A DNA stretch of 64,000 nt from Botryllus schlosseri (taxonomy: Eukaryota). The notes beneath the pieces are model-generated. The model was not told the DNA's origin, did not search any database, and worked only from the letters and a program-made list of their open reading frames with translations. The position numbers and the translations under genes were made by a program. This document shows, piece by piece, positions 12,223 to 57,227 of this stretch. Every line of letters starts with the position of its first letter. Positions within the stretch are counted from its first letter, which is position 1. The stretch lies in assembly GCA_051294905.1 (NCBI GenBank), contig CM119372.1:38876001-38940000 (forward strand), written 5' to 3'.

Positions 12223-13385
12223 CTAAGATAAAGTGTGTTCTGCAGTGTAATTAGCGTTTATGGACTCGTAATATTCATTCATTTCTTCCCACAATGTGAT
12301 CAGCTCGAACGGTAGCGCTTTATGATATGTTTTGATAGTTGAGAGACAGTACGGAGTCGGGTCTTTCAATCCCCAACTGGCAAAACTCTTACGGCCATTG
12401 ATTGGCTTGACGCCAACAGCTTTGGCTAGCGTACCCACGAAAGCGTCATCAACCGGGAGCATATACTTCCAGAAAGTGGCAATCCATAATCTCACCACCA
12501 GACTTCCGCTAATCAAGAAACCACCTCCGGACACGTAAGGCGGGTAGAGTTTATCCGGGTACAAACGTCTGCTCACGTAATACCTTGAGGTATTCACGCG
12601 GACTGGCGGTTGGCCCATAAGCGTTGACCCGGTCCAAAGGTCTTGTTCTCTTTCGACTGGAAGAGACATGAGAAATTCCAGAATATTTCTCATATTCATG
12701 AGCATATCGTCATCTCCTTGAATTAAAAAGGGTACATCCATACAGTGTGTCGCATACCATTGCCACAGCAAACAATGCTTCAAGCTTAAATTGTGAAAAC
12801 TGTCCATGAAATCCCATTGCAATATATCGGCATGCGTAGTCAATTCGTCCCACAGTTTATCAGTGTCTTCGTTTGTCACACAATCCCCCAGCAAGAAAAC
12901 TAATTTCACTCTTACCCCTGTCGTGTGGTATGTCCGCGATTCGTTGCCCCATGTTTCCCTGATAGCATCTCTTCGAAATCTATGGTTACAAGTAGACTTG
13001 ATACCCATTAAAAGAAAAACGTCATTTTTGAAATTAAAGCTATTGAAGCCATGCGGGTTGTTCAAACTGTCACATGTGTTGTTATCTGAAACTATCAATC
13101 TGTAATCTCTTTTTTGTGAAATTACTTCGGCACTGGTAGCGTTTATCATCAGGCTCGGGTCCGTGTGTTTATCCATGCTTTCAATGCCAGGCAGTTGATA
13201 CTTGTTGCCGGTGCTGAAATTTAACGTCTTTAGCGCGTTTACAGTGAAATTTATATGGGCGGCGAAACTGCCCTTTGCTTGATAGAATGTCCGGTTTGTT
13301 TTGGTGACGTTGTCTCTCAAACGACCGAATCTTACGCTGTCAGATAGGTTCTGATTGGTCGCGTGCCATTGCGACCTCAGCATTC
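12223..13385 (-). CDS. GT31 beta-1,3-glycosyltransferase (B3GNT-like) paralog 1, catalytic exon
   Basis: Motifs IKS...RRDAIRETWG, VFLLG, DILQWDFMDSFHNLSLK, GDDD, YPPYVSGGGF, PVDDAFVG; acceptor TTCTTACAG|GA at 13386/13385. Confidence 0.93.
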
Positions 13386-13977
13386 CTGTAAGAAATGTTT
13401 ACGTGATTAGAAAATAGACGTCATGTTTACGTGATTAGGCATTAGACGGCATGATCACGTGTTCAAGATGGATCCTCAGCGAGCTGTTTAGAAATCACGA
13501 CTAAACGAAATTAAATTATTACTCTGGTAAACACTACTTTTGTTGACTTTGATCAGACATTGATTTCGACCAACTTTTGGTCGCTGAATTTAGAAATGAC
13601 TCCCGTTTTTCTCTATCACATCGATTTGTTAGGTTAGGCGCCACCACATTGTCTAGTAACCAGGTCCTGATATTTTTAGCATACGCCAAAAATACAAAAA
13701 TAGATTGTTTCTGGCAATTTTCGGATTTTATTTTGGTAGTTATGGCATCACCAGAAATTATTATTTGTATACTCGAATTAACGATGTAAAACACTGTATA
13801 TTCTAATCTGTCATATCAAACGAAAGTCACAAACGTGCAGTGTCCACTTTGTATCATCGATCAGCGAGAGTAAAAACCGAATTAACAACTGCGTTGGAGA
13901 GTCAATTTACCAAATACAAAACCGACCGACTGCTTCTGCAATATCGAGTCCGAATAGTCGGTTCGATATGCGTGTCA

Positions 13978-24668: not shown

Positions 24669-24698
24669 AAATTACAGCTACGCCTAAAACATTTAAGT

Positions 24699-29000: not shown

Positions 29001-30204
29001 TATCTGTCACTCATGGTAATTGGAATTTAAACACGTACATTGATGATTTTCTTGGATTTCGACTCGCAAACATTCGCTCTCTCTGCACGAAGACATAGTC
29101 ATGCTCAATATTGATGGTTTTCAGCGCGTAGTAATTCCGCAGTCACTTCGCTCGCGAGCCTTATCATTGTTGCACGAAGGACATTGGGGTATCGCCAAAA
29201 TGAAGCAGATGGCTCGACGTTACATTGCATGGCCTTCCATTAATCGCGACATTGAAAATCTCGTGAAGAGTTGCGACGCTTGCCGTGAAGTAATGAAAGC
29301 GCCTGATCGTCAGTATCGCGAATGGCCCAAAACGTCTAAAAGCTTTGAACGAATTCATTTGGATTTCGCAGGTCCAATAAACAATAAAATGTTTCTTGTC
29401 ATCGTCGATGCGCATTCGAAATATCCTTTCGTTAAAGTAATGAATGTCGGTTCTACCACAACCTTGCGTGTAGTCAACGCTTTGAGGGAAGTCTTCTCTA
29501 TTGAAGGCTTGCCCATAACAATTGTCACGGATGGCGGGCCGCAATTCACATCGAATGAATTCGATACGTATTGTTCCAATTCGACAATCAGCCATATCGT
29601 ATCCCCGTATTTTCACCCTGCCTCGAACGGGGAAGCGGAGCGATTCGTCCAGACTTTGAAAGCTGGATTGATAAAAAATTGCGACGGGGGAAAAGATCTC
29701 AACTTCGCGCTCCAAACACTTCTCGCTACTTACCGATGTGCACCGCACCCGGGCATAGACTGGAAAACGCCTGCTGAGATTTTACATGGTTGGCAGCCGC
29801 GCAATTTGTTAAGTTTGTGCTCGCCCGTCGTTAAATCGAAACCCGTTACGCCTAGACAATCCGTCACTCATTTCGAGATTGGTTCCTCTGTTTACGCTCG
29901 CAGTTACCGACGCGGACCAAAGTGGGTTGCTGGCGTGGTGACGGAAATACTGGGACGTGTTGTGTACATTATAAAAACAGATCATGGGTATTGGAGAAGG
30001 CATAAAAACCAAATCCAACCACGCTTGATTTCCACAAGTAATGATACAGCCACACAGGAAGTTGCTCAGCCTCAACAGTCCCAAGCTGAGCAACCATTGG
30101 TCAGGAATAGGGCACAACGCCCTGCAGTTAGTCCTGCTCGAACGTCGGGCAGACGTTATCCGCTTAGAATTAGGACCCAAACTGATTTTTATCGGCCAAC
30201 GTAA
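26089..30204 (+). pseudogene. Gypsy gag-pol broken by stops and frameshifts
   Basis: Gag 26350-26931 with CCHC remnants; protease WDTSA; RT KIDLADAYFQ, FIDD; RNaseH TDVSQFGIGAVL, YSQIEKEAL, TDHKP; integrase LHEGHWG...CDAC, HLDFAGP, TDGGPQF, SNGEAERFV. Confidence 0.92.
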
Positions 30205-32312: not shown

Positions 32313-33478
32313 TCACGATATTGTAGCGATGTTTGCCGTGTAATTGGCGTTTATGGACTCGTAATATTCATTCAGTTCATCCCACAATGTGATCAGCTCG
32401 AACGGTAGCGCTTTGTGATACGTTTTGATTGTCGACAGACAGTACGGAGTCGGGTCTTTCAATCCCCAGCTGGCAAAACTGTTACCGCCATGGGTCGGCC
32501 TGACGCCGACAGCCTTGGCTAGCGTACCCACGAAGGCGTCATCAACCGGGAGCATATACTTCCAGAATGTGGCAATCCAAAGTCTCACCACCAGACCTCC
32601 GCTAATCAAGAAACCACCTCCGGACGCGTAAGGCGGGTAGACTTTATCCGGGTACAAACGTCTGCTCACGTAATACCTTGAGGTATTCACTCGGACGGGT
32701 GGTTGGTCCATAAGCCGTGACCCGGTCCAAAGGTCTTGTTCTCTTTCGATAGGAAGCGACAGGAGAAATTCCAGAATATTCCTCATATTCATGAGCATAT
32801 CTTCATCTCCTTGAAATAAAAAGGGTACCTCCATACAGTGTGTCACATACCATTGCCACAGCAGGCAAGGCTTCAAGCTTAAATTGTGAAAACTGTCCAT
32901 GAAATCCCATTGCAATATATCGGAATACGTTGTCAATTCATCCCACAGTTTATCAGTGTCTTCATTGCTCACGCAAGCCCCCAGCAGGAAAACTAATTTC
33001 ACTCTTACCCCTGTCGTGTCGAATATCCAAGATTCGTTGCCCCATGTTGCCCTAATCGCATTTCTCCGAAATCTATGGTTACAGGTGGACTTGATACCCA
33101 CTAAAAGAAAAACATCATTTTTGAAATTAAAGCTACTGAAGCCATTCGGGCGATTCAAACTGTCGCATGTGTTGTTATCGGAAATTAATAATCTGTAGTC
33201 TCTTCTTTGTGAAATTGCTTCGACACTGGTAGCGTTTTTCATCAAGCTGGAGTCCGTGTATTTATCCATACTTTCAATGCCAGGCAGTTGATACTCGTCG
33301 CTGGCGCTGAAGTTTAATGTATTCATCGCGTTTACAGTGAAATTTATATGGGTGGCGAAACTGCCCTTCGCTTGATAGAATGTCCGGTTTGTGTTGGTGA
33401 CGTTGTCTCTCAAACGACCGAATCTTACGCTGTCATATAGATTCTGATTGGACGAGTGCGATTGCGACCTCAGTCGTC
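32313..33478 (-). CDS. GT31 beta-1,3-glycosyltransferase (B3GNT-like) paralog 2, catalytic exon
   Basis: Closely similar to paralog 1; open frame from acceptor TTCTTACAG|GA (33478) to stop; GDED variant. Confidence 0.92.
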
Positions 33479-34971
33479 CTGTAAGAAATGTTTACGTGAT
33501 TAGAAATTAGACGATATGGTCACTTGTTCAAGATGGGTCTTCTGCGATCTGTTTAGAAATCACGGCTAATCGATATTATTTTTAAACTGACTTGCGGTCA
33601 TATTTGTTTAGATTAAAATTTGTATGAAATATAAAACAGCGGTATGCTCGAATGTTCTCGATTACAAACACAACGCAAGATTTCCAATGGTGAAAAATTC
33701 AGAGCATGTAAGTTTATAAATAAGTATATGCAACGCAGTTTAGAACCAGTATCGATAAATCATCTTTATCGAATGTTCCCTACGATTTTGACAACTTGAA
33801 GTATTATTTTTTCAATACAACATCCATTGTAACAGAATATTTTTCAAACTCGAATACTTTTTGGGTGCATCTTTTAAAGAGTTAACGGCACATTAAAGGG
33901 ATTTAAACAGATTTAAAAGCAAAAAAACAAAAAAGCAAAGTATGACGCAACAGTCAAAATCACAGATCATGAAGTATCATCTGCAAAAATAGCTTCCACT
34001 GGCAAATTGGTAGCTAATGACACGTGATTCCACAAATTTGAAAAGAAATCTTTACTTGAAAGTCACAAGACGAGGAAAAGGCTCTTAGTAAATACTCTGC
34101 TAAGTAAAGTGACATCGAAAACCTTGATTAGTCATAATGGAATAAGGACGAATGGTGCGAACTAGGGATGGATAGTGTGAACCTGTGAAAGGTTAAGATT
34201 CGTGTAAACGCGAATTTTTTTGAAAGTTTCGGCAACAAAGCAAGACGGACGTGAACCTCGCGTTCACGCCGACCCTAGTGCGAACCTATTAAACGCACCG
34301 CGCGAACAACTAGAAGTTAACGTACAAAGTAATTTGATCCGATATGGTGTCAATTTTTGCGCAAATAAATTCTTTACTTATGAGATCCGCAGTGACAAAC
34401 TAGATACGGTTGTTTTACGAACACCAATTACGAATGACCAGGTTGGCACTTCGGGTACCGAACATAAAACTGGTTATTAGAGTTGTCTGTGGAACGTATA
34501 TCATCCCGGTAAGAGAAGCTTTTTTGAAATAACTATTTTGCAACGAGTACACCCAAACCTATAAGCAAGATTGTAGCCACTTTCTCAGTGATATTAACCT
34601 TTGATTGCAAGCACCAAGATGTTGATACAGCGCGTTTGAAATGTACCCAAAACTACGTTATAATAACTTACGGTGTGATATAGTCACCTAAGATCGGTGC
34701 ACCAAATTACGGTAATTTCATGCCACTCAGTAGTTTTTCCAAGGTTCTTGCTGAGGATAAAGTGTCAATCAATATAATGCAGATGCGTCGCCACTGCCCT
34801 ATCATTGTCAGCAATTCAATTTATAGCTAAAAATTTCACCACAAGACTGCGATACAATATAAGATAGGACGGTGTCGAAACGAGTTGGAGTAGTCTTCGA
34901 TATCTGTCACCCATCTGGCCTATAAACGATGTTAAAAGGCATTCACGCTGAATGAAAAGTAAAAGACGATA

Positions 34972-38474: not shown

Positions 38475-41082
38475 GGCTAGATGAAAAAAATCGGCTCAGT
38501 CGTACTACAAAGTTCTGAAATTCAATCTACTTGTTATTTTGACACGCTGAAGACTGTTTTAAATCAAAATACATCAACAGAATTGTATTTCGGGGTATTA
38601 AATCAATCATAATTGGTGATTTTCATGGATATCATGTACAGAAATAAACTTCAACCATAAGTATTTACCTAAATAGTCAAATAAAGTTGCATTAATTGAG
38701 TCAGTTTTATGTCAACCACTTATTTTAAATTCAAAATAATCAGTTGGAATATAATAATATTAACTTATCTCCAAGCAAAATTGGTTCTTGTACTATTTTC
38801 GGCTGTGAGCAATTCAGTGCAGTTTTTCGAAAAGTTCCAGCAATAGGCCTAGTCTGTCATAATATGTTCGTCGCATTTTGACCAGAAAGCTTCCAAGCAT
38901 GTTTAGCGTACAAAGGGCTCTCACTCTCACTCTTAAAAGTGGTATACTCGATAGGTATAGGCATAGGCGCCGACTTTAATTTTTTTACGAGATGGCGAAG
39001 TCTTGTGACGTCATAATTGTTCCATATCGATGACGTCATCGTCGCACGAAAACGCACTTTACTGCATGCCGCTGGTGTACGTGCAGAGTTAAACTATTCG
39101 CGTGACGTTTTAATATCGGCCCTGCACTTATTAATATCAAACCATGCAGTCGAGTTATTAAATGGAATCTCAAAACGGTACGATCATTTGAAGTGTAACT
39201 GCGGTCTGCGCTACCAGTCCGTCCGACGGAATCTGCAGTTGCATCAATGTTATTCACGCGCAATGCCCCGTATGAGTAACGAAATACACTACGCACTGGC
39301 CTTGCAAGTAACACACAACTCTCGAATGCTTCAAGCAGACAATAATGATAATTACAAACGCAAAATCGCACAGCTAATCAGTAATTGTCAATTGCGGTTT
39401 CTTGCTTCGCGTTGACCAACTCGCATCGCGGCAATCGTTTGAGCAATAAAACATTGATGCATTTCCCGATTTGCGTTCGCGAAGCTTTTCGGGAGTACAT
39501 CGGTCAATTCGTAATTTCAATCTGCATGTCGACGGCCGCTAACGCATACTAATTGAAATACATGTTGACGGCCGCACAAATTTCCTTCTAGGGGCGCGGG
39601 TTGGCCACCCCTGGGCTAGAATTAATCCCACTTCCGGACGCATGCCGCGAACTTACCAATAGAAATACACTGTCTATCTAATGCGTAATAGTTTAATATT
39701 CGATAGTGTTGTTCTCGATACGAGTACATCCAGCAATCAAGTTTATCGGAATGTAGAAGGCTCCCTGTTCAAACGAATCGAATAAAATCAGAATTTGTGC
39801 CACCCATAATCTTGTGATGCATCAATATTTGACAATGGCATGGCATGGCCTACTGCACGTTAACAATAAAAGGAACACTGTTCGGAGTACGAATGTATCA
39901 AGTAGATAACAAGAAATATGGATGATGGCAAGTGAGAAAGCGTGTATTCAAATCAGTATCGCCACGAATCGGTTTTGAATGTGACATCATATTGAGTAAC
40001 TTTCGTCGCGACAATTGTTTTCTCATTATATCGGTGTTTAAGCTGTATTGCTACATTTCCCGATTAATGTCACTGGCAAAGCCTTGTTAGAGAAACGAAT
40101 CTGCGCACAAATGAATTCCAATTTGCAGGCACACACCAACACACCCTCCAATTTCGCGCTCCGATTACCTATCACGAAGCTATAGCTAGCTCATGAATGA
40201 TTTTGTAAACGAATATGGGCGCACATAATTTAGATTTAAGAAAAACAGAACGTATATTTTGGGCGCCTGGTCGGGAGAGGAGATCTAGGATGGTGCTTCT
40301 CAGCACACGCTAGGCGCGTAGCCAGTCGAAAAGTTAGGGGGATTTGGATTTTTTTTAAATTTACCAATATAGCATCAATTGAATTCGGGTCATGTACGAT
40401 TGTACAATGTACACATGTGTAAATGGCGATCATATAATATCTTCGTATCGACGATTTTAGGCGTATGATAGGCTTGCCAAAGAGTCCGGGAGTGCTGTCA
40501 ATTAGTGAGTCCCTGATCTCCGGCAAACAATTAAATACGCGCGCGCATTACGCAGTCTCGGCTACAGTTTTCGCAAATCAAAATGTCAGAACTCGTTGAC
40601 ACCGATTTCAAACCTTTGTCGTATTTCAGAACTGGAGACATGATACACATCTTCTGATCGTTACGTTCGAGTATTAGCGGGAATCAATTTCGCACGTTAC
40701 AGTCTGTTTGCAGCGATTCGATGTTATTCAGTTTCGCGATGTCGCTTTTTAATTAATATGATATAAAACAATCACTAATTAGCGTAAACTCGACCGCATT
40801 GTCTCCAAACCAGCGAGAGATAGGAGCCAAAGCATGCTAGGCCCGAGACGCGATAGTTAGGCCATAGGCTAGCAATGATATCTTTCACTCCAGGCCTATT
40901 GCATATGCTATTGTGTAGGCTAGCGATGATATCGTGCACGCCAGGCCGAAGCCGCCAATGCAGATGCGATTGCGCAGTTAAGCGATGATATAGTGTGAAC
41001 TGGGCCTATTGCAAATGCGATTGTTGAAACCTGCGCAACCAGGCTTGATCGAGACGCGATAAATCAGGCTAGCGACGATCAG

Positions 41083-41250
41083 TAGGGGTCTCAGCTTTTC
41101 CGTGGCCACTTACTGGCCACAGATTTTTTTGTGGCCGGCCACGAATATCTCGTGGCCGGCCATGAAAATGCGTTGTCTCGTGGCCGGCCACAGTGAATTT
41201 CGTGGCCGGCCATACAAATTCATCGTGGCCGGCCACGGGTTCATGGCCAG
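41083..41250. repeat. TGGCCGGCCA palindrome array (left)
   Basis: About 5 copies at 20-27-bp spacing after TAGGGGTCTCAGC. Confidence 0.8.
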
Positions 41251-42003
41251 TTCGTGATTATGGCACATCTAGTTGGATCAAAATCCGCCATTTGCATCCA
41301 ATTTGCCAATACTCAAGTAGATCTTCTTCAGTTGCAATACGAACTTGCTGGCGGTAAGGTTTGTATAGACGACTTTCACTATTATCGCACGTACTTAAGT
41401 CACATTACCACTTTATTGAGTAGTTTAGGGATGGGTTCAAAATTTGCACGGCTTTACACGTGTTTACCTTCTGTGTTCGCTGTAGAAATGAATTTAATTC
41501 CCACTGACTATTGAAAAAGTACTCTGGGGCGATGCGTTGTAAACTAACACCGAAACATATGTTCCTTGAACTTCCTTATAGAATCTATATAAATATTTGA
41601 TAGAGTAATGTATGCGCGTACATCTTATTGCTCGGTCAGACAGACGTCTTTATATTAAAAATGGTGTCCACACAGCTTCCACGCCAGGCGATCAACACAA
41701 TGGGATTGCGTGGAAAGATAAAACCGTGGTGCGGACTCGATAGCCTTGCAGCTTCTTCGCATCTCCATCGCCCAAGCCCATTAGTGATGCAAACGTAGAT
41801 AATCTGACTCCCTGCCCCTCCTTCCTTTTCTACATAAAGAAACCGTCATATTTTGCTACAAAAAGTTTGTTTATTCCGTTACCAATTTCACAAAATCTGA
41901 AACAATTGAAGATATGATTACAATCATTCACAATTCATATACAAGTAGTTGAATGCAATGTGTTCAATACATGCTTTTCACAGAAAACACCTAGGGGCAC
42001 GAG

Positions 42004-45000
42004 AGTAGTATAGTAGATCGGTCGTGAGGTGGCAGGGGTTCTTATGGGCCCGCTGGTGACTCGCCGCGAAACTCGTGTTGGTGATTCGCCCTTTTCGACC
42101 CCCCCTATCGCTGGTGAGTCGCCATGTGTTCTTATGGGTGCGGCCGTGATTCGCCCTTTCAGGTATAGGCTGCGTCGGTGACTCGCCGCGAAAACTCGTG
42201 TTGGTGACTCGCCTTTTTTACTATAGGCGGTGGCGGTGATTCGCCTGTCGTGTATTCTTACGCGGTCTCTGGTGACTCGCCATGTGTTCTTATGGGTGCG
42301 GCCGTGAATCGCCCTTTCGGGTATAGTCAACTCTCGCGCTGTGTTGAATATGTATCAAGTAAATAGTCACGTGATTGATTCTTAGATAATGTGTATATTA
42401 CAAATTATTAAATATGACCGATTCGAGTTAATCCCAACGTTTACGGTGAGTGCGACAATGATATATCGTTATTCTTATGGTGGGGGTGGCAAGCGGCTAT
42501 TGTGTCTTGCGGTCGCACGGTAACCCTTTTCAGCATAGGGATCGGTCGCAAGCGGCTCTTATGTCTTATCGCGGAGGTGGCATACGGCTATTGCGTCTTA
42601 TGGCGAGGGTGGCAAGCGGCTATTGTGTCTTGTGGTCGCAGATCTCTGGTGATTCGCTGAATGAACCTTTGTTAATGTGTATATCGTAAATTATTATATA
42701 TGATGTAGTTTAGTCGTGACAAATGACCGATCGTGTTCTAAGTCTTTCCTCGCTATTGATCGCTAGCTGAATAAGACTTCAGATCGGGTTATTCGCACCT
42801 TGTATACCGCTGTTTCGCACCTACAGAATAGTCTGCTGTCCACAGTCGTGACTTCACCGCGATAGCACAATATTCGCAGGTAATATTTCCGCAATAAGTT
42901 TGTCACAGAGCCGTCGCACAATATCCGCGTTCACAAACTAACACTCCAAAAAGGTGTGAAATATTGGTAAAATCCCGCGATCGCTCACAAGATAATACCT
43001 AAGACATAACCATCGCTTGCGACTCGCTGTTACATACATGCCGATCGTTGACAATGTAATATTTTGGTAATTGGTTTGCCACAGAGCCGGCGTAGACGGT
43101 GACTCAAATATCAACAATAGCCGCGTTCACAAACCAACACTTCAAAAACGCGTGAAATAGGTTACAAATCCCACGATAGCTCACAAGATAACACCAAAGA
43201 CATCACCATTTCTCGCGTCTTGTCATTACATACATCCCAATCGCTACAGTGTAATGTGTCGATGGTTGTTACTATCAAGTAATAAGTCATGAATAACAGT
43301 ACCAGCGCAGACCGTGATTCGAAAACCAACAATTTGACACTTACCCGCGATCGCTATATGTTTCATGCCTCTCGAATAGTGGCTGACTTTAGTTGCGTGA
43401 TAAGATCCATGAAAATATTCAATCAATGTGTTAGTTTGTCAACTTGAAATGTAACTCACTACACAGATCAAGTTGAATCGTATTTGAATGTGTTGATCCG
43501 GTACAACTCTAATCCTTTGAGAAATCCATTTACCGCGATCTGTTGATTCGAACGTAACCTGAATATTACTGACTCCAACTTCAGTCGCGTCGGATTATTC
43601 ACACATTCCACGCCGCTGTTTCACACCTATAGAGTCAATACCAACTATAACTCTACAAGAATCACAAGTATGTGCATTATACAGTTATTTTCTTTATCAA
43701 CATGAATTTAAACTCTTAACAAAAACACGCAACTATAATCATTTGCCAACTCTAGCATTACCAAAAAATTCAGGTATTGTTGATTGAAAATCCTTGAATC
43801 CGTATTATTAAGAGTTTTATAGTACGACGTCGGAATCCACTCGCGAGATGTACTAAAGGTAAATCCAGATAATCCAAAATGAAATATTTGGACTTTGACA
43901 TAGTCTGAATTGAAATAGATTGACAAACATGACTAACAACTTTCAACTTAGTCATATTTAGAGATTATACGCACATTGATTCGAAACAAGTAATGAAACA
44001 TTACAACTCGATTCGCGACCTGTCTTTACGTTTGTCAAAGAGAGCTTCAGAAATATTATCACTATGACATCTCAACATTTTAACATCTTGCCATCAACAA
44101 AAGAGTAAAATACAAAAACCTTGTCAAGTCAATCCGTTTGTAACTCACCGAACCAAAGCAAAAAAGTGTCCATACGAAAAGTAGACAAGACTACGCAAGT
44201 AATCACTACAACCCACAAACATATCAAGTTCGGTTTTAGGCATATACCACCAACTCGTCTTTTTGTTCAACTGTAAAAGTCGTTACTATGCCGCAAGACA
44301 AAGAAATTACTATGCGGTATATTTTGTAAGACAAAAGTAATTACTTCTCGGTGTCGGCGACTTGAGGTTAACATAATATATTTGAGTATACGACATTTGA
44401 AAGTATGACCATCGTAGTTTCTTACAATCGAACGCAGGTGTTATATCGAAAATTATCGTGATGTAAACATAAGGATTGTCACATCGATTTAACATATGAG
44501 ATTTCGTAATGGTCTATCATGACTTGATTATTAAATTATTCGCGTTAATTAGACCCGGCGTTGTGGTAAAGGTTATTATGACAGCAACAAACTTTTCAGT
44601 ATCGTTGTTATTAACATATTGAGTTGTAAAACTATGCGTGTCTGAAATGTTCTTTAATGGAAAATTATTCCACCTTGGTACATATCACCCTGCGTATCGC
44701 GGATATCAGAAAATATTTTACAAATGTAATTGTCTCCACTAACCAAGACTAAAGATGAAACAACAATTTCCTTTGTTAAACAATAACCGGTACAATACTT
44801 TATCATCGTAATCAGCAGTGAGAATTGAAACACTTTCGCACATTATCCGGTGTCAAGATATCACACTGGGTGAATTGACATACAGCCGCTTGATTAATAC
44901 TTAATCCATTCGCACCATTTCACATACTTTGATCATTACAAAAGTAAATTGGAATATGTTTGCTGATGCATTCAATTCAGTTAGAAATATCTGGTACACA

Positions 45001-48000
45001 ACAATCGTAATATCAAGGAAGTACTTGCTACGCTGTAATCCACTTAACGTGTTTTGCATTGTTGTTCATTTGTAGTATTGATTGTTTTTGAACCCTCAAA
45101 TAATAATTGCCGACATGAAACCAAACCGCTGAAAGTCGTTACCATCACAACGAAACAATTTGTACGATGTTTTTCAAATGCATCCTATAGTTAGGTGTAC
45201 TAGAATTATTTGTGTAACACATACGCCGACAATGCAATCGAAAATTTTTCCGTTGTCATTCGCTAAAGTAAATGTCATCACAATACTCATCAAGCTGTCA
45301 TCTGTAAATCAAGATTACATCCAACTTGTAGCTGTGTCGTTTAACTACCGGGTTGCATCAGTTTGCTATTTTTGTCATTTAGTGACTGCTGAACATACCA
45401 AACGATACACATTCACTTACGAAATACTGTGTTGGTCGTAATTTCCATCATCGTGATAATCGAAGTACATTTGTTTCGAGTTCATAACAACCGACTACTT
45501 TTCTATGACCCGATATATTTTTGACAAGTTATGCTTAGAAGATTGGTGCATCTCGCGAAAAATAATATACCACTCATATTGATACTGCTACTCCATCGAC
45601 CGGTATTTTCAAACGAGTCGATTTTCAACCGAGCAAAATGTATTACTCGAGTTGTCCTGCTTACTATATTTAAATGTAAACTCACCCGTCTTTCAACAAC
45701 AAACAATGATAAAAAGTACACAAGCAAACACAACAAGTTTTACTTTTGTAGGACACTAATTATTATTCCACGCATCTCATTTCATACTAAGTGTATATGA
45801 AAGATATTCATGGTACACGAATATATTCGCTCATGCTACGAACATACGCAATGATTGGTGACGCTTTCACACTATTTCGATTTAGTGTAACAAAAACAAC
45901 AACAACAATTTTCACTCTCTTGACTTATGAAAACAACAGACGAACCTTCATTCAATATTTTGTTTTTGTCAACTAGTTACTTTTTCATGAGACCCCCACT
46001 ACTCTTACAAAAGTACGAAAGATATTTACATCACACAAAGTAATCAACTTTACTCGATATTCCCATGCTACGAACCTGTACAATGATTGGTGACGCTTTC
46101 AAACTGTTTCGTTACCTCAAGACCTTTATTGTCTGAATGGTTGTTCATGTATCTTATTAATCAAATAGTTCAACACACAACAATAGTACGAACAGAAACA
46201 TCAGAGTTGTTTACACAAAAGTTTGTATGCGTACAGTATGCGAATACCATGTGTAAGTCGAGCGCAATTGCGGTATCCATCCAAGTTTAGTTAACACAAA
46301 TTCATTACAACGGAGCCGCGTAAACTTTCGTGAAAGAAAAGCATACCCACTTCCCGAGGGGTCTGTCAATGTCATAACAATAAACCAGATACTCCAACAA
46401 CAGAGTACATATGTTTTCTAGTCACGATCCTTACATCTTTCACATAGATCAATCTACTTTGCTATCGAAAAGTGCTGAGTCATCATATGGTTATCCTCAC
46501 TAGTAAAACATACTATCATACAAAATGGTCGTTATAGTTTGCACACCAACGGTACATCGTACAAGTAACAAGTCTCGAGAATCCAGTTATTCAAAAAACG
46601 TGAAAGTATTTCTACACCAAGTCGTTATGTTGACGAAAGCGTATATTGTAATACCATGATCGATTTGCATTCGTTGGTCACAAACTGTCACTACTCTAAA
46701 TAATTATTTTTCACTCAAACACAAAAGCATACTTGTCGCCAATCGTTTTCATCAAGTACGAGTTCAAGAAACTTACTACGACATGAATTTTTATTTTTAT
46801 GTAGTGTAAATAGGTAATAATTAATTCAAGTAACACTATATCAACATCATCGAGTTGTGCTAATAGATTTACATGTCTTGTGGTTTTCATCGGGACATAC
46901 AGCACGAACTAACTGTAGACTCCTCTCTGTTGTACAGCTACTCGGTAATCGAAATGCATTAACATGTAAACAACGATCTTGTTTCGTCACACCAAAAATA
47001 TGTTCACTGTCGCGATACTCCGCACAAGACGTGCATAGCCTTTGCACACTCGTAATAGTATACCAACGTCAAGCGATAACCTTTAACAAGACCAACGACA
47101 CTGAACCCACGACGTTTACCTATGTAAAATTACCACTTTCACTTGCCAGTCCATCGTTTACCTGACTAAACATATTATTTTCCTTTGGAGATCTGACGTT
47201 TACCCAGAGTAAGAAACCATTTTCACTTGTAAATATATTTTTTCCTTGGCTAACAAACCTTTTTTCACTTGGAAATATAGTTTTTCCTTGGCTAACAAAC
47301 CTTTTTTCACTTGGAAATATATTTTTTCCTTGGCTAACAAACCTTTTTCACTTGGAAATATATTTTTTCTCTGGCTAACAAACCTTTTTCACTTGGAAAT
47401 ATATTTTTCCCTGGGTAACAAACCTTTTTTTCCCTGAGCAACAAACCATTCTGACTTGGTGGTCCGTCGTTTAGCCGAGTAAAAAGATCATTTTCCTTTG
47501 GAGATCCGGCGTTTACCCAGTGTAACAATACATTTTCACTTGGAAAAATACTTTTACCTAGAGTAACTAATCATTTTCTCCTGGGTAACAATCCCTTTCC
47601 GTCTGGAAACTATCATTTAACTGAGTACCAATACCGTTTTCACTTGGAAATACATTTTTTCCCTGGGTAACAATACCATTTTCGTTTTGAAAACTGACAA
47701 CCACACCGGTCAATTTGATATTTTTGTATATTGTTACAACGAACAGCGACGGAAATATACACAGACTACCGGTTTCAGAGTACACCCCATCGGTCGTATC
47801 ACGTCAATATCATCGGTTAACCACATACAATATACTCTTGTACACCGAAATGCACGCTTTGGAAAATTGGACAATAGGCCTCGATAGTTCTGTGATGTCC
47901 GGGTTCGTGCTTTGGATTTTCCAGAGTCAAAATGTCTGAATAAAACACCTCCTCGACTTTGGTACACGGATATGGTCGGAAAACGGTTGGATTTATGTCA

Positions 48001-48394
48001 CCCATCGCGATAACAATTCCTGGTCGAGTTTTCCTCCCGCATGTTTACTATATTGTGTCTTTATTGGTCAATGTATGTCTCGACATTCAGTTTGAAATCG
48101 GAAATGATAAAGTATGTAACCGGATCCGGATATCAACTCTGAATCGATAAACCAATGAACAATATTCAAAGTAAACATGTCACACCCTGTGTTTCCACGA
48201 AAAAATACCATCCAGACATACATCGCGCTTGTTTGCCCACACCAGTATACGCGCAAATGGAGGTGTGTGACATTGCATGCAATGTGTTGGTATACAAACA
48301 TCGATCCACAGACATTATCATAGCTGGTAGTTTTGATGTAGATCGAATGTCACCCGATAACAATACCAATAAGCCACATTGCAATGACTCTGAG
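42004..48394 (+). repeat. Left inverted arm (~6.39 kb)
   Basis: Reverse complement of 49346-55744. Confidence 0.97.
47215..47430. repeat. ~41-42-bp tandem repeat (about 5 copies plus diverged flanking units), mirrored at 50318-50533
   Basis: Unit TTGGCTAACAAACCTTTTTTCACTTGGAAATATATTTTTTCC. Confidence 0.9.
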
Positions 48395-49345
48395 GTAATC
48401 TGAAGCATGACATACAGACACACAAACATGGAACCGTAACATGGGTTATTCGCACGGCGGTGAAAGTGAACTGTACAGTACATACCAATATTGCGATCAC
48501 AGTCAAATATGCAAACCGTGTACAATCATATAACCAGGTTTTTGTCTGATATGTACAAATCCAATAAATCGATACATTTCTTTTCCCTGGACATCAATAA
48601 TACAATCACCATTCAAATGCATCACTCGAATGTGAGGTTCGTCTGGTGTAAAATCCATATCAAATAACACCAAAGTGTGCCTTCCGTGTTTTATCATTTC
48701 CACCGACGCTTCTTGTCTGTGTCGTAACACTATGGTGCTGGGACTTGAAAAACGACGGATTGTGAAACGGATTGACATGATCTTCGATATGACCAACAGA
48801 ATCGACGTCAATAGCCTTGTGACGATGTCGTTTCAAAATGTTACCGATATGACGAGCGAAACCTCGATCCCTTGCGGTGATGACCGTTTCGAAATGTGGC
48901 TGGACGAATGGGACCCTCAAGATGGCGTGTTTTATGATTGTGTGAAATCACGAGGTAGTGTTCTATTTGTGGTGTACGATTGCAGTCTTCACAGAAACAC
49001 ACCTTATTGGATCACAGTATCAGTCCGAGATTTGCAGAATCACTGTTCGCGATATTTATCTGGAGTCGTTATGTGGGAGTAGCGACATCCATGCATCGTG
49101 ATTTAGTGAAAGACTGATCGCAATCATTTCGAGCACCGTACTTCGATAGTTCACATTGGTCAAACGCTGTAGCCTCAGCAGAAAACTTCGGTTCTCGACA
49201 ACACGCTGGATATTGATCGATGTATCCAATTGATCTGGGTGGTCTGTCTGGAGATAGGGTCATGACTATCTTGTAATGTTACAACGCGATAACACCATCG
49301 AGTAAATCAGTGAACGGTATCGAAATATCGATGTAATAGCGCGGA

Positions 49346-52300
49346 CTCAGAGTCATTGCAATGTGGCTTATTGGTATTGTTATCGGGTGACATTCGATCT
49401 ACATCAAAACTACCAGCTATGATAATGTCTGTGGATCGATGTTTGTATACCAACACATTGCATGCAATGTCACACACCTCCATTTGCGCGTATACTGGTG
49501 TGGGCAAACAAGCGTGATGTATGTCTGGATGGTATTTTTTCGTGGAAACACAGGGTGTGACATGTTTACTTTGAATATTGTTCATTGGTTTATCGATTCA
49601 GAGTTGATATCCGGATCCGGTTACATACTTTATCATTTCCGATTTCAAACTGAATGTCGAGACATACATTGACCAATAAAGACACAATATAGTAAACATG
49701 CGGGAGGAAAACTCGACCTGGAATTGTTATCGCGATGGGTGACATAAATCCAACCGTTTTCCGAACACCGTTATCCACATACCAACCGTCGTCGAGGAGG
49801 TGTTTTATTCAGACATTTTGACTCTGGAAAATCTAAAGCACGAACCCGGACATCACAGAACTATCGCAGCCTATTGTCCAATTTTCCAAAGCGTGCATTT
49901 CGGTGTACAAGAGTATATTGTATGTGGTTAACCGATGATATTGACGTGATACGACCGATGGGGTGTACTCTGAAACCGGTAGTCTGTGTATATTTCCGTC
50001 GCTGTTCGTTGTAACAATATACAAAAATATCAAATTGACCGGTGTGGTTGTCAGTTTTCAAAACGAAAATGGTATTGTTACCCAGGGAAAAAATGTATTT
50101 CCAAGTGAAAACGGTATTGGTACTCAGTTAAATGATAGTTTCCAGACGGAAAGGGATTGTTACCCAGGAGAAAATGATTAGTTACTCTAGGTAAAAGTAT
50201 TTTTCCAAGTGAAAATGTATTGTTACACTGGGTAAACGCCGGATCTCCAAAGGAAAATGATCTTTTTACTCGGCTAAACGACGGACCACCAAGTCAGAAT
50301 GGTTTGTTGCTCAGGGAAAAAAAGGTTTGTTACCCAGGGAAAAATATATTTCCAAGTGAAAAAGGTTTGTTAGCCAGAGAAAAAATATATTTCCAAGTGA
50401 AAAAGGTTTGTTAGCCAAGGAAAAAATATATTTCCAAGTGAAAAAAGGTTTGTTAGCCAAGGAAAAACTATATTTCCAAGTGAAAAAAGGTTTGTTAGCC
50501 AAGGAAAAAATATATTTACAAGTGAAAATGGTTTCTTACTCTGGGTAAACGTCAGATCTCCAAAGGAAAATAATATGTTTAGTCAGGTAAACGATGGACT
50601 GGCAAGTGAAAGTGGTAATTTTACATAGGTAAACGTCGTGGGTTCAGTGTCGTTGGTCTTGTTAAAGGTTATCGCTTGACGTTGGTATACTATTACGAGT
50701 GTGCAAAGGCTATGCACGTCTTGTGCGGAGTATCGCGACAGTGAACATATTTTTGGTGTGACGAAACAAGATCGTTGTTTACATGTTAATGCATTTCGAT
50801 TACCGAGTAGCTGTACAACAGAGAGGAGTCTACAGTTAGTTCGTGCTGTATGTCCCGATGAAAACCACAAGACATGTAAATCTATTAGCACAACTCGATG
50901 ATGTTGATATAGTGTTACTTGAATTAATTATTACCTATTTACACTACATAAAAATAAAAATTCATGTCGTAGTAAGTTTCTTGAACTCGTACTTGATGAA
51001 AACGATTGGCGACAAGTATGCTTTTGTGTTTGAGTGAAAAATAATTATTTAGAGTAGTGACAGTTTGTGACCAACGAATGCAAATCGATCATGGTATTAC
51101 AATATACGCTTTCGTCAACATAACGACTTGGTGTAGAAATACTTTCACGTTTTTTGAATAACTGGATTCTCGAGACTTGTTACTTGTACGATGTACCGTT
51201 GGTGTGCAAACTATAACGACCATTTTGTATGATAGTATGTTTTACTAGTGAGGATAACCATATGATGACTCAGCACTTTTCGATAGCAAAGTAGATTGAT
51301 CTATGTGAAAGATGTAAGGATCGTGACTAGAAAACATATGTACTCTGTTGTTGGAGTATCTGGTTTATTGTTATGACATTGACAGACCCCTCGGGAAGTG
51401 GGTATGCTTTTCTTTCACGAAAGTTTACGCGGCTCCGTTGTAATGAATTTGTGTTAACTAAACTTGGATGGATACCGCAATTGCGCTCGACTTACACATG
51501 GTATTCGCATACTGTACGCATACAAACTTTTGTGTAAACAACTCTGATGTTTCTGTTCGTACTATTGTTGTGTGTTGAACTATTTGATTAATAAGATACA
51601 TGAACAACCATTCAGACAATAAAGGTCTTGAGGTAACGAAACAGTTTGAAAGCGTCACCAATCATTGTACAGGTTCGTAGCATGGGAATATCGAGTAAAG
51701 TTGATTACTTTGTGTGATGTAAATATCTTTCGTACTTTTGTAAGAGTAGTGGGGGTCTCATGAAAAAGTAACTAGTTGACAAAAACAAAATATTGAATGA
51801 AGGTTCGTCTGTTGTTTTCATAAGTCAAGAGAGTGAAAATTGTTGTTGTTGTTTTTGTTACACTAAATCGAAATAGTGTGAAAGCGTCACCAATCATTGC
51901 GTATGTTCGTAGCATGAGCGAATATATTCGTGTACCATGAATATCTTTCATATACACTTAGTATGAAATGAGATGCGTGGAATAATAATTAGTGTCCTAC
52001 AAAAGTAAAACTTGTTGTGTTTGCTTGTGTACTTTTTATCATTGTTTGTTGTTGAAAGACGGGTGAGTTTACATTTAAATATAGTAAGCAGGACAACTCG
52101 AGTAATACATTTTGCTCGGTTGAAAATCGACTCGTTTGAAAATACCGGTCGATGGAGTAGCAGTATCAATATGAGTGGTATATTATTTTTCGCGAGATGC
52201 ACCAATCTTCTAAGCATAACTTGTCAAAAATATATCGGGTCATAGAAAAGTAGTCGGTTGTTATGAACTCGAAACAAATGTACTTCGATTATCACGATGA

Positions 52301-55300
52301 TGGAAATTACGACCAACACAGTATTTCGTAAGTGAATGTGTATCGTTTGGTATGTTCAGCAGTCACTAAATGACAAAAATAGCAAACTGATGCAACCCGG
52401 TAGTTAAACGACACAGCTACAAGTTGGATGTAATCTTGATTTACAGATGACAGCTTGATGAGTATTGTGATGACATTTACTTTAGCGAATGACAACGGAA
52501 AAATTTTCGATTGCATTGTCGGCGTATGTGTTACACAAATAATTCTAGTACACCTAACTATAGGATGCATTTGAAAAACATCGTACAAATTGTTTCGTTG
52601 TGATGGTAACGACTTTCAGCGGTTTGGTTTCATGTCGGCAATTATTATTTGAGGGTTCAAAAACAATCAATACTACAAATGAACAACAATGCAAAACACG
52701 TTAAGTGGATTACAGCGTAGCAAGTACTTCCTTGATATTACGATTGTTGTGTACCAGATATTTCTAACTGAATTGAATGCATCAGCAAACATATTCCAAT
52801 TTACTTTTGTAATGATCAAAGTATGTGAAATGGTGCGAATGGATTAAGTATTAATCAAGCGGCTGTATGTCAATTCACCCAGTGTGATATCTTGACACCG
52901 GATAATGTGCGAAAGTGTTTCAATTCTCACTGCTGATTACGATGATAAAGTATTGTACCGGTTATTGTTTAACAAAGGAAATTGTTGTTTCATCTTTAGT
53001 CTTGGTTAGTGGAGACAATTACATTTGTAAAATATTTTCTGATATCCGCGATACGCAGGGTGATATGTACCAAGGTGGAATAATTTTCCATTAAAGAACA
53101 TTTCAGACACGCATAGTTTTACAACTCAATATGTTAATAACAACGATACTGAAAAGTTTGTTGCTGTCATAATAACCTTTACCACAACGCCGGGTCTAAT
53201 TAACGCGAATAATTTAATAATCAAGTCATGATAGACCATTACGAAATCTCATATGTTAAATCGATGTGACAATCCTTATGTTTACATCACGATAATTTTC
53301 GATATAACACCTGCGTTCGATTGTAAGAAACTACGATGGTCATACTTTCAAATGTCGTATACTCAAATATATTATGTTAACCTCAAGTCGCCGACACCGA
53401 GAAGTAATTACTTTTGTCTTACAAAATATACCGCATAGTAATTTCTTTGTCTTGCGGCATAGTAACGACTTTTACAGTTGAACAAAAAGACGAGTTGGTG
53501 GTATATGCCTAAAACCGAACTTGATATGTTTGTGGGTTGTAGTGATTACTTGCGTAGTCTTGTCTACTTTTCGTATGGACACTTTTTTGCTTTGGTTCGG
53601 TGAGTTACAAACGGATTGACTTGACAAGGTTTTTGTATTTTACTCTTTTGTTGATGGCAAGATGTTAAAATGTTGAGATGTCATAGTGATAATATTTCTG
53701 AAGCTCTCTTTGACAAACGTAAAGACAGGTCGCGAATCGAGTTGTAATGTTTCATTACTTGTTTCGAATCAATGTGCGTATAATCTCTAAATATGACTAA
53801 GTTGAAAGTTGTTAGTCATGTTTGTCAATCTATTTCAATTCAGACTATGTCAAAGTCCAAATATTTCATTTTGGATTATCTGGATTTACCTTTAGTACAT
53901 CTCGCGAGTGGATTCCGACGTCGTACTATAAAACTCTTAATAATACGGATTCAAGGATTTTCAATCAACAATACCTGAATTTTTTGGTAATGCTAGAGTT
54001 GGCAAATGATTATAGTTGCGTGTTTTTGTTAAGAGTTTAAATTCATGTTGATAAAGAAAATAACTGTATAATGCACATACTTGTGATTCTTGTAGAGTTA
54101 TAGTTGGTATTGACTCTATAGGTGTGAAACAGCGGCGTGGAATGTGTGAATAATCCGACGCGACTGAAGTTGGAGTCAGTAATATTCAGGTTACGTTCGA
54201 ATCAACAGATCGCGGTAAATGGATTTCTCAAAGGATTAGAGTTGTACCGGATCAACACATTCAAATACGATTCAACTTGATCTGTGTAGTGAGTTACATT
54301 TCAAGTTGACAAACTAACACATTGATTGAATATTTTCATGGATCTTATCACGCAACTAAAGTCAGCCACTATTCGAGAGGCATGAAACATATAGCGATCG
54401 CGGGTAAGTGTCAAATTGTTGGTTTTCGAATCACGGTCTGCGCTGGTACTGTTATTCATGACTTATTACTTGATAGTAACAACCATCGACACATTACACT
54501 GTAGCGATTGGGATGTATGTAATGACAAGACGCGAGAAATGGTGATGTCTTTGGTGTTATCTTGTGAGCTATCGTGGGATTTGTAACCTATTTCACGCGT
54601 TTTTGAAGTGTTGGTTTGTGAACGCGGCTATTGTTGATATTTGAGTCACCGTCTACGCCGGCTCTGTGGCAAACCAATTACCAAAATATTACATTGTCAA
54701 CGATCGGCATGTATGTAACAGCGAGTCGCAAGCGATGGTTATGTCTTAGGTATTATCTTGTGAGCGATCGCGGGATTTTACCAATATTTCACACCTTTTT
54801 GGAGTGTTAGTTTGTGAACGCGGATATTGTGCGACGGCTCTGTGACAAACTTATTGCGGAAATATTACCTGCGAATATTGTGCTATCGCGGTGAAGTCAC
54901 GACTGTGGACAGCAGACTATTCTGTAGGTGCGAAACAGCGGTATACAAGGTGCGAATAACCCGATCTGAAGTCTTATTCAGCTAGCGATCAATAGCGAGG
55001 AAAGACTTAGAACACGATCGGTCATTTGTCACGACTAAACTACATCATATATAATAATTTACGATATACACATTAACAAAGGTTCATTCAGCGAATCACC
55101 AGAGATCTGCGACCACAAGACACAATAGCCGCTTGCCACCCTCGCCATAAGACGCAATAGCCGTATGCCACCTCCGCGATAAGACATAAGAGCCGCTTGC
55201 GACCGATCCCTATGCTGAAAAGGGTTACCGTGCGACCGCAAGACACAATAGCCGCTTGCCACCCCCACCATAAGAATAACGATATATCATTGTCGCACTC

Positions 55301-55744
55301 ACCGTAAACGTTGGGATTAACTCGAATCGGTCATATTTAATAATTTGTAATATACACATTATCTAAGAATCAATCACGTGACTATTTACTTGATACATAT
55401 TCAACACAGCGCGAGAGTTGACTATACCCGAAAGGGCGATTCACGGCCGCACCCATAAGAACACATGGCGAGTCACCAGAGACCGCGTAAGAATACACGA
55501 CAGGCGAATCACCGCCACCGCCTATAGTAAAAAAGGCGAGTCACCAACACGAGTTTTCGCGGCGAGTCACCGACGCAGCCTATACCTGAAAGGGCGAATC
55601 ACGGCCGCACCCATAAGAACACATGGCGACTCACCAGCGATAGGGGGGGTCGAAAAGGGCGAATCACCAACACGAGTTTCGCGGCGAGTCACCAGCGGGC
55701 CCATAAGAACCCCTGCCACCTCACGACCGATCTACTATACTACT
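49346..55744 (-). repeat. Right inverted arm (~6.40 kb)
   Basis: Reverse complement of 42004-48394. Confidence 0.97.
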
Positions 55745-57227
55745 CACGAGAGATCAGATTCACTTTACATGGCGATAAGTATCTGCACTGCATTCAAATG
55801 TCGAATTATAATGAATAATTGGGACTTGTCTGTGTCATCAAGATTGTTCCCTGAACATTGATTGGGGAAACATTCCATTGTTCCCTGCATCAATCACAAA
55901 TATATCATGCCTATTGGTCAATTCGCAGGCTTGGCAGGGGCATTTTTTCATCGATGGATGGCGCTGCATTTGATGTCGCATCGATCGATGGTGCTGCATT
56001 AGATGACGCAAAGTATCTGGAGTTATCTATTATTATAACAGTAATTTAATTATATAGCAGGCACATTTATGTCCTTATGCTCACCACATCGGTTAGCAGC
56101 TTGATCTAACAACGACACGCGATACAAAACGATCCTTGCACCCAAGTAATCAAGTATCCTCTGGCATACACGGCATCGTTAGTGACTGCGACATGCATCT
56201 CATTCGTATATTATTTGTTTCAACCTGGAAGAATGGCACCTAGGTGGATATATACATACAAATTATATGGGATCGGAAACGTGACCAAAATCAAATTTCT
56301 GGGAACAAGCCCCACATTTTACCAATATGACCGGTAGGTTAGGCTACATCGTTGCCTTTATTCTACATCTACAGCACATCTGCAGTGTGTCAAGTTCAAG
56401 TGCTGCTACAGCATAGAAATATTCATAGACTCATCGACACAATTCTCATCGTGCAACAATATGAGTGCAAGCTCCATTGATGTTGAGGATCTCGAACGTC
56501 GTATGTATTGTATAGCAGTACGTTAATCAAATGTATAAAACCGGATATCGCGGACTCATCATAGACCTAATACAGGAAAGAAGGATTGTATCAGCGTGGC
56601 ATTATCCAATTCACAGCTATTCAGCTATGCTATACGAACAGAGGTGGTCAGTAACGAAGTACTTCTACTTTTTTGAAGTACTCAAGTAGTTCTCCTCTAC
56701 TTCTGGTACTTACTCAAGTAGATCTGATTTTCGCTACTTCTACTTCTACTTCTTAATATTTTGTGATCTACTTACTTACTTGTCGCTACTTTCAGTTTGT
56801 CAAGTAGAAGTAGTTCAACCTTTCAATCAGGAAGATAGCCTGAGGAATTTCGGAGCTGTTTTCACGGAGTATTAACATTTAATTTTCGTAAAAGTTTAGT
56901 AGAGCCCAGAATTTACGTCGCGCTTCGCGCGCCGTGGATACGGAGTGACCAGTATGATTTCACGAAAGTATCGGTGAATATAATTTATGTGGAGGGTTGG
57001 CGTGGTTCCGTTCACGCCAGATTGTCGCCCTTCGCCCATATGAAATAATTCATCACAGTATATATGGCTCATCATAACGTTTGAAACTGATGTTTCGCAA
57101 TGTAGCATTTTCTTGTCATATCGTAATTTAGCATGACCATTGTCCATGGCGTGTCCTAATCTGGAAAAGCTTCTTTGAGGTACAGAACTTCAATATACAA
57201 TTGAATAGCATATTCATATTAAAATGA

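Follow-up and report, generated by a model that had tools for sequence, protein, structure and literature searches.

Long palindromes with Polinton ends in Botryllus schlosseri, probably non-coding satellites of a recently active Polinton family

We analysed a stretch of 64,000 nt from the genome of Botryllus schlosseri (assembly GCA_051294905.1, contig CM119372.1, positions 38,876,001 to 38,940,000 of the forward strand), referred to below as the window, which contains an element made almost entirely of two reverse-complementary arms. This element is very probably a non-coding, palindromic satellite that is mobilised by a Polinton of a recently active family. Going one step further, we propose, at a probability of about one in three (0.35), that elements of this kind are mini-genomes of an animal Polinton virus that occur naturally as inverted dimers. 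A capsid would select them for a length of at least roughly three quarters of that of the autonomous helper, and they would replicate by protein-primed strand displacement by way of a snap-back hairpin that keeps the arms identical.

An earlier inspection of the letters alone (the original prediction) had described a 13.7-kb near-palindrome with AGTAGT...ACTACT ends, a CACGAG duplication, arms of ~6.4 kb and a 951-bp centre, and all of these features were recovered at the predicted positions (Table 1). The arms (6,391 and 6,399 nt) make up 93% of the 13,741-bp element. An inverted-repeat search of the window returned one pair at 42000-47957 / 49791-55748 (5958 nt, 100% identical) and a second at 47973-48394 / 49346-49767 (422 nt, 99%), with 951 nt separating the inner arms, and a self-BLAST of the element gave 6,400-6,403 aligned columns at 99.70-99.72%. 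The identity of ~99.7% over a repeat of 6.4 kb makes a chance origin impossible.

The family and its autonomous helper

In the assembly that we searched (495.5 Mb, 219 contigs), which a galactosyltransferase gene and retroelements in the window mark as animal, the terminal 400 bp of the element have numerous further matches, most often arranged as inverted pairs with a spacing of 12-16 kb. Complete sequences were obtained for 15 elements (the window copy, ten fetched copies and four more; a fifth extra one was recovered only partly). All 15 start with AGTAGT, and all 15 lie between perfect 6-bp target-site duplications that are mutually different. The original prediction had pointed to other copies with different 6-bp duplications and to an autonomous Polinton with the same ends; both exist, the latter as a 16,434-bp copy described below. 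Thirteen of the 15 elements are near-complete palindromes with arms of 4.1-6.6 kb, and the remaining two are the autonomous element and a 3.3-kb non-palindromic relative. The latter (L051, G000:C1:19317205-19320506) has 369-bp terminal repeats that are 98.4% identical, a perfect TTCGTA duplication and no frame of 150 amino acids or more, and a 347-bp stretch of it is 89% identical to the window arm. Only three palindromic copies (C6a, C1x and C1z) exceed 15.5 kb, and in each of them an ordinary transposon has inserted into one arm; the inserts are a 4-kb long terminal repeat (LTR) element whose 329-bp LTRs are identical and which has an ATGT duplication (L056+L057), a 4.2-kb CACTA-like element with a 3-bp duplication (L052+L053) and a 2.1-kb terminal inverted repeat element with a TGCTCA duplication (L033+L034).

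To estimate abundance, we counted a 21-base terminal motif, which matched the genome 1,277 times (630 + 647) as against 0 + 0 for a reversed control. This implies roughly 640 elements with intact ends. Taking the 1,277 matches together with a length of ~14 kb, we arrive at a rough estimate that elements with these ends, helper and satellites together, occupy maybe 1-2% of the 495-Mb genome. Queries with the centre and with the arm gave at least 40 candidates each and, judging from such matches, palindromic copies number in the hundreds. One further pair of ends (G000:C1:33469672-33483361) has its terminal motifs doubled 153 bp apart at each end (33469672/33469825, mirrored at 33483208/33483361), which we read as a terminus duplicated symmetrically within the repeat. 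No match to the terminal motif was found in public viral contigs. Thirteen matches in metagenome contigs were set aside as chance, none of them having further similarity to satellite or helper.

Parts of the stretch occur in 20 listed sequencing runs, none of which is recorded as RNA, and four runs were aligned to 41000-49345. The contigs of the older runs are short, and none spans the stretch. In two samples of the species and in one carrying a second species label, the element had a summed contig depth ~10 to 40 times that of the flank, a ratio that is not a copy number. Contigs of the second species label and of other samples of the species contained arm and centre sequence. This bears on the possibility that the palindrome is a fold-back or assembly artefact of the kind to which chimeric long reads can give rise. 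We regard the chance of this as negligible: the 13 palindromic copies lie at separate loci with unique left and right flanks and with perfect 6-bp duplications of their own, and a few mismatched positions and small indels set their two arms apart. The caveat of an assembly fold-back that came with the original prediction can thus be laid aside. A 440-nt contig from the second species label matches the left flank at 41667-42005 (~96%; 10 differences and 4 gaps in 343 nt) and is then unlike the element; it is consistent with an empty site, because the right flank begins with AG after the duplication.

The autonomous copy (G000:C16:14142674-14159107, the helper) is 16,434 bp long and has the same ends, inverted repeats of 843-860 bp (99.2% identical) and a unique interior of 14.7 kb. 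Among its products, a protein of 1295 amino acids matches DNA_pol_B_2 (31.5 bits, cut-off 25.8), one of 359 amino acids carries rve (60 bits) and Chromo domains, and a P-loop ATPase of 215 amino acids matches Pox_A32 weakly (E 0.0035). Another protein, of 432 amino acids, has no Pfam match, and its relatives are animal ‘F54H12.2-like’ proteins of at most 40% identity. Its predicted fold is a double jelly-roll (predicted local distance difference test score, pLDDT, 87.5), for which Foldseek returned the capsid proteins of Singapore grouper iridovirus (SGIV), Paramecium bursaria chlorella virus 1 (PBCV-1), Sputnik and mavirus with E values of 1e-16 to 1e-12. On the strength of this model, we identify it as a double jelly-roll capsid protein. 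We assign the helper to the Polintons/Mavericks by the defining gene set given in a passage of PMC4028283.

The autonomous family looks numerous and recently active. The polymerase is free of stops at 32 of the 36 loci scored, and the best 40 of 219 candidates for a 3-kb region on the capsid side are all full-length, 97-100% identical, and present singly in one orientation only. Ten of the 36 polymerase loci form a second group, with 93-95% identity to the examined copy from residue ~158 onwards and only ~50-60% in the first ~80 residues, which suggests two helper subfamilies with different polymerase N-termini.

The window element and the helper share their ends. The first ~505 bp are 97.8% identical, identity across helper positions 1-844 is 86%, and similarity is confined to ~0.85 kb at each terminus, the interiors having no similarity in DNA or protein. 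Within the shared part, seven copies of the motif GTGAYTCGCC stand at identical positions in the helper and in nine of the 12 palindromic copies tested, and this array provides candidate protein-binding sites. The earlier view of the element as a satellite-like Polinton derivative agrees well with these common ends, duplication length and motif array, and mobilisation in trans by a Polinton is well supported by the sequence comparison. The helper's integrase would insert the satellite in trans via the common ends, and its protein-primed polymerase probably copies the satellite from the same ends.

Long inverted arms containing tandem repeats also recall Foldback elements, and the element could in principle belong to a Foldback-like or other transposon superfamily with ends that merely resemble those of Polintons. 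We consider this very improbable, since the terminal 505 bp are so close to those of an autonomous Polinton copy, since motif array and 6-bp duplication are the same as in the helper, and since tandem repeats amount to only a few hundred bases per arm (~0.3 kb in the window element).

Still less probable is an ordinary internal deletion of an autonomous Polinton with terminal repeats of ~6 kb. Long repeats do have a precedent in butterfly Polintons, whose ~2-kb gene-bearing repeats are described in part of a 2026 preprint (bioRxiv 10.1101/2025.02.07.637071). The autonomous copy with the ends found here, however, has short repeats (843-860 bp), no similarity in DNA or protein connects its interior with the arms, and the capsid-side region occurs in a single orientation in the best 40 candidates already mentioned. 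This disposes of an alternative that the original prediction had raised itself.

The window element lacks the gene content by which Polintons are recognised and is a non-autonomous derivative only. Its longest stop-to-stop frame, in the centre (48636-49082), has 148 amino acids; the predicted lack of coding capacity therefore holds, while the predicted ceiling of ~135 amino acids was set slightly too low. A frame of 139 amino acids at the left end extends beyond the element. None of the 43 frames of at least 60 amino acids in one arm plus the centre reached the Pfam cut-off (there was one sub-threshold chance match), and tblastn with the helper's protein frames against the element interior yielded no match, the only five hits all having E values of 0.11-0.85. 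In line with the original prediction of no core Polinton genes, pPolB, the rve integrase and the virion-module genes were absent from the element by Pfam and tblastn. Rfam gave no match at E ≤0.1 over 41500-56300. We also considered the 148-amino-acid frame as a gene and rejected it: not one of 12 further copies has it whole, since nine have stops in the aligned stretch, one keeps only 36 codons and two are without the region. The centre as a single strand folds no better than shuffled sequences (z -0.22), and no notable internal inverted repeat was found in it.

The original prediction had further suggested that the element, if transcribed, could yield double-stranded RNA directed against its own family. 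In one form of this idea, the element would be a hairpin-RNA locus retained by the host for making anti-Polinton small RNAs. Transcription through it would indeed give a 6.4-kb hairpin, and in a bulk RNA run (~6% of it read, 12.9 million reads) reads were found on both strands. These were ~90 reads, all fitting only partly, with a depth of at most 2.2, too thin to judge expression or small RNAs. What the arms have in common with the helper is limited to the terminal ~0.85 kb and includes no gene, and hundreds of dispersed copies with fresh duplications look like a parasite and not like a fixed host locus. We find this explanation improbable, and the suggested RNA against the family did not gain support.

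Doubled helper ends and the length of the satellites

Some relatives of the window element carry the same helper end twice. A query with the terminal 1,200 bp of the helper picked out six inverted pairs whose match, at both ends, extends beyond position 843, where the helper's repeat stops, into sequence unique to the helper's left side. In one such two-left-end relative, the arm follows the helper's left end for ~470 bp past the repeat at 94% identity, into the 3’ part of a helper frame, and the helper-like stretch then joins arm sequence of the palindromic family; the presence of both arms in this relative was confirmed. A query of 675 bp of right-unique helper sequence returned seven inverted pairs with this sequence at both ends, among them G000:C15:4002539-4016191, and for these two-right-end pairs homology was traced for the 675 bp next to the helper's right repeat. 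Judged by their sequence, palindromes with two left or two right helper ends fit either repeated formation of inverted dimers or an exchange of ends with the helper. A left-end packaging signal, which would have only the helper's left ends duplicated, was considered and dropped when the two-right-end palindromes were found.

Most of the elements measure 12.2-14.2 kb. We took a census of 31 paired termini on contig C1, based on coordinates only and paired by hand: 18 pairs are spaced 12.2-14.2 kb apart, three 14.9-15.5 kb, four 16.1-16.8 kb and four further apart, and only two are shorter than 12 kb. One of the pairs at 16.5 kb belongs to an autonomous element, and a second one bounds a palindrome into which a transposon has inserted. 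When copies with a large nested insertion are set aside, the palindromes are 12.2-14.2 kb long (74-87% of the length of the 16.4-kb helper), and this holds across clades at least 25% apart; the commonest satellite length is ~83% of the helper. One copy falls outside this range, at 10.3 kb, having lost internal sequence from one of its arms. A non-autonomous partner nearly as long as the autonomous one is unusual; in cut-and-paste families it is short derivatives that usually dominate.

Adenovirus offers a model for such a length range. According to the passages of PMC4189039 on vector size, helper-dependent adenovirus genomes grow by rearrangement when they are smaller than ~27 kb (75% of full length), those outside 75-105% of that length are prone to rearrangement, and a 15-kb vector was packaged as direct and inverted dimers. 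Monomers with one origin give rise to tail-to-tail dimers through adenovirus replication, and these are preferentially packaged owing to their size, according to the corresponding part of PMC2518115. By analogy, the palindrome would be an inverted dimer that brings a gene-less replicon to ~74-87% of the helper's length, and a capsid of fixed size would accept DNA in that range. We regard such selection of the inverted dimer by capsid size as a real possibility that falls a little short of an even chance. A dimer selected for its size is favoured both by the palindromes with two left or two right ends and by how few short forms there are. The earlier suggestion of a copy-back type of derivative, possibly constrained by packaging, is strengthened by these relatives and by the length distribution, and we retain it as a suggestion.

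Near-identical arms and the origin of the palindrome

Within each of the 13 palindromic copies the two arms are 99.3-100% identical. Between copies, a 1-kb arm segment is 74-98% identical, and copies differ by up to about 25-30%. In a maximum-likelihood tree of this segment, each of the 12 copies included had its left and right arm as sisters; end branches were at most 0.001 long, and between-copy paths were above 0.2. Since the substitutions and indels of each lineage are mirrored in both arms, homogenisation must be far faster than mutational divergence. One copy (C6b, L041+L042, G000:C6:7666534-7679694) departs from the pattern in that the inner ~600 bp of its arms are 78.8% alike as against 99.9% in the outer 5.3 kb; it is best read as having a recombinant centre that joins two lineages.

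Replication could account for this homogenisation. During strand-displacement replication, the displaced strand of the palindrome would snap back into a full-length 6.4-kb hairpin, and mismatch correction in the hairpin, or copy-back synthesis, would keep the arms identical in each replication cycle. The snap-back defective genome of viruses, characterised in the relevant section of PMC13506859 as the fully symmetric product of reverse-complementary copying, is a parallel to this. Arguing from that parallel, we hold hairpin-based homogenisation of the arms as a tentative explanation, with the odds slightly against it.

The chief alternative keeps the Polinton-mobilised satellite and explains its symmetry otherwise: the palindrome arose by a one-off accident, chromosomal gene conversion has kept its arms alike, and the length of ~13.5 kb was passed down from the founder. 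Arm-to-arm gene conversion is established for the palindromes of sex chromosomes, and arms that lie only ~1 kb apart are good conversion substrates. A single founder is indicated by the junction between arm and centre, which recurs at the same points (centre query positions ~2/3 to 946-951) in 37 of the 38 further listed matches that span most of the centre; the conserved junction implies that the window lineage descends from one founding palindrome and not from repeated random copy-back events. The two non-palindromic elements, moreover, have more diverged repeats (99.2% and 98.4%), and the 3.3-kb and 10.3-kb relatives did integrate. Against the accident speak the helper-end palindromes of both types, which suggest repeated formation or end exchange, the rarity of short derivatives (two of the 31 C1 pairs are below 12 kb) and the similar lengths of 12.2-14.2 kb kept by clades at least 25% apart. 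We take this alternative seriously and think it quite possible, if clearly less than an even bet.

Several observations weigh against our proposal of capsid-selected inverted dimers that replicate through a hairpin. Arm identity is no lower in C6a, C1x and C1z, the three copies with a nested transposon (99.88-100%), than in the others, and equally alike arms in such copies slightly favour conversion in place. The window arms share only the helper repeat itself, which makes two identical helper ends unreadable from the window copy, and the ~5.5-kb interior of the arm bears no similarity to the helper. That both two-left and two-right palindromes exist speaks against a packaging signal carried by only one of the helper's ends. 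The 3.3-kb non-palindromic relative and the 10.3-kb one (arms 100% identical) both have perfect duplications, from which it follows that length is no absolute requirement for integration, and the length mode could be inherited from a founder. A protease was not detected in the one helper copy examined. Size selection and hairpin homogenisation are both arguments by analogy.

Strand composition of the arms was recorded in six copies (the window, where 44001-48000 and 50001-54000 were used, L035, L037, L041, L043 and L049). With the strand read from the nearer end, GC skew, the relative excess of G over C, was -0.11 to -0.17 in the arm interiors of all six, compared with -0.06 to +0.01 in the helper's coding regions. 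From this skew the 5’ half of each element strand is C-rich, which is a misfit with a simple model of deamination on the displaced strand.

Relation to known systems and other features of the window

The window element resembles autonomous Polintons/Mavericks in its 6-bp duplication, its ends starting with AG, its long terminal inverted repeats and its AGTAGT reiteration. AG ends are reportedly typical of the Polinton family, as Kapitonov and Jurka are said to have described in 2006. It differs in having no genes, in an inverted repeat that covers 93% of the element as against about 5% per end, and in an interior unrelated to the helper. The trinucleotide reiteration AGTAGT also recalls the CATCAT terminus of adenovirus, which is used for jumping-back in protein priming.

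Daniell reportedly observed in 1976 that incomplete particles of adenovirus contain long inverted repetitions. The closest counterpart, to judge from parts of PMC4189039 and PMC2518115, is the helper-dependent (‘gutless’) adenovirus, which is likewise gene-less, keeps only the ends of a linear double-stranded DNA virus with protein priming, can form an inverted dimer and has a length within ~75-105% of its helper. Those genomes are laboratory constructs seen in virions, whereas the family described here is natural, integrated and evolving and is known from genome sequence; its axis of symmetry, moreover, is a 951-bp unique loop and not a hairpin-forming repeat. With snap-back or copy-back defective genomes, as described in part of PMC13506859, the family shares a symmetric reverse-complementary palindrome and dependence on a helper, and it includes relatives with two copies of one helper end. 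The classical examples are derived from RNA viruses, are made afresh in each infection and consist of helper sequence, whereas the window family is heritable, old (up to ~25-30% divergence) and mostly of non-helper sequence.

Among transposons, miniature inverted-repeat transposable elements (MITEs) and large retrotransposon derivatives have also kept their cis-acting ends, lost their genes and come to move in trans and to outnumber the autonomous partner. They are usually far shorter than that partner, whereas here the commonest length is ~83% of it and short forms are rare. Foldback of Drosophila has long inverted arms too, but these consist of tandem subrepeats and its duplication has another length, as against ~0.3 kb of tandem repeats per arm and 6 bp here. 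The palindromes of sex chromosomes share the long inverted arms and their concerted evolution and are not known to be mobile.

Our literature searches, with Repbase entries and the founding Polinton papers lying outside them, found no description of palindromic non-autonomous Polintons. For Anolis, an apparent absence of non-autonomous Polinton copies is noted in a passage of PMC3014272. Polintons/Mavericks encode capsid genes. Maverick particles had not been observed, according to PMC8097293. The present family provides a handle on two possible features of the Polinton cycle, namely a rule on genome length like that imposed by adenovirus capsids and a single-stranded fold-back intermediate. 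To our knowledge, the replication cycle of Polintons is known only from models. If our proposal is true, the family would be genomic evidence that a rule on length governs the encapsidation of Polintons in animals and that their cycle includes a stage of folded-back single strands, and it would represent a satellite or defective-interfering system of natural origin, in competition with its helper.

Table 1. Coordinates of the palindromic element and its parts in the window
Feature	Position	Strand	Remarks
Whole element	42004..55744	.	13,741 bp; ends AGTAGT...ACTACT
Target-site duplication, left copy (CACGAG)	41998..42003	.	directly before AGTAGT
Target-site duplication, right copy (CACGAG)	55745..55750	.	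directly after ACTACT
Left palindrome arm	42004..48394	+	6,391 nt
Right palindrome arm	49346..55744	-	6,399 nt; reverse complement of left arm; 99.7% counting gaps
Unique centre	48395..49345	.	951 bp, non-coding
Left end, homologue of the helper inverted repeat	42004..42848	+	
Right end, homologue of the helper inverted repeat	54900..55744	-	
Seven direct copies of GTGAYTCGCC	42056..42281	+	53, 78, 143, 175, 201, 233 and 269 nt from the end
Mirror of the seven-motif GTGAYTCGCC array	55467..55692	-	
42-bp tandem repeat, inner arm	47220..47430	+	5.1 copies; mirror copy 50319-50538
32-bp tandem repeat	42544..42631	+	2.8 copies; mirror copy 55113-55204
Sole sizeable asymmetry between the arms	47958..47972	+	15 nt, as against 23 nt at 49768-49790

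Elsewhere in the window, pieces of an LTR-retrotransposon gag-pol region lie in several frames at 26239-30204 (plus strand), with a weak gag match and matches to RVT_1, Integrase_H2C2 and rve. Adjoining this retroelement, an open frame of 776 amino acids (22341-24671, minus strand) has no Pfam match at E ≤0.001. Two galactosyltransferase paralogues, each a single-frame gene (391 and 392 amino acids), are found ~20 kb apart at 12223-13398 and 32313-33491, both on the minus strand, each with a Galactosyl_T match of 131 bits; by their sequences we read them as a local duplication.

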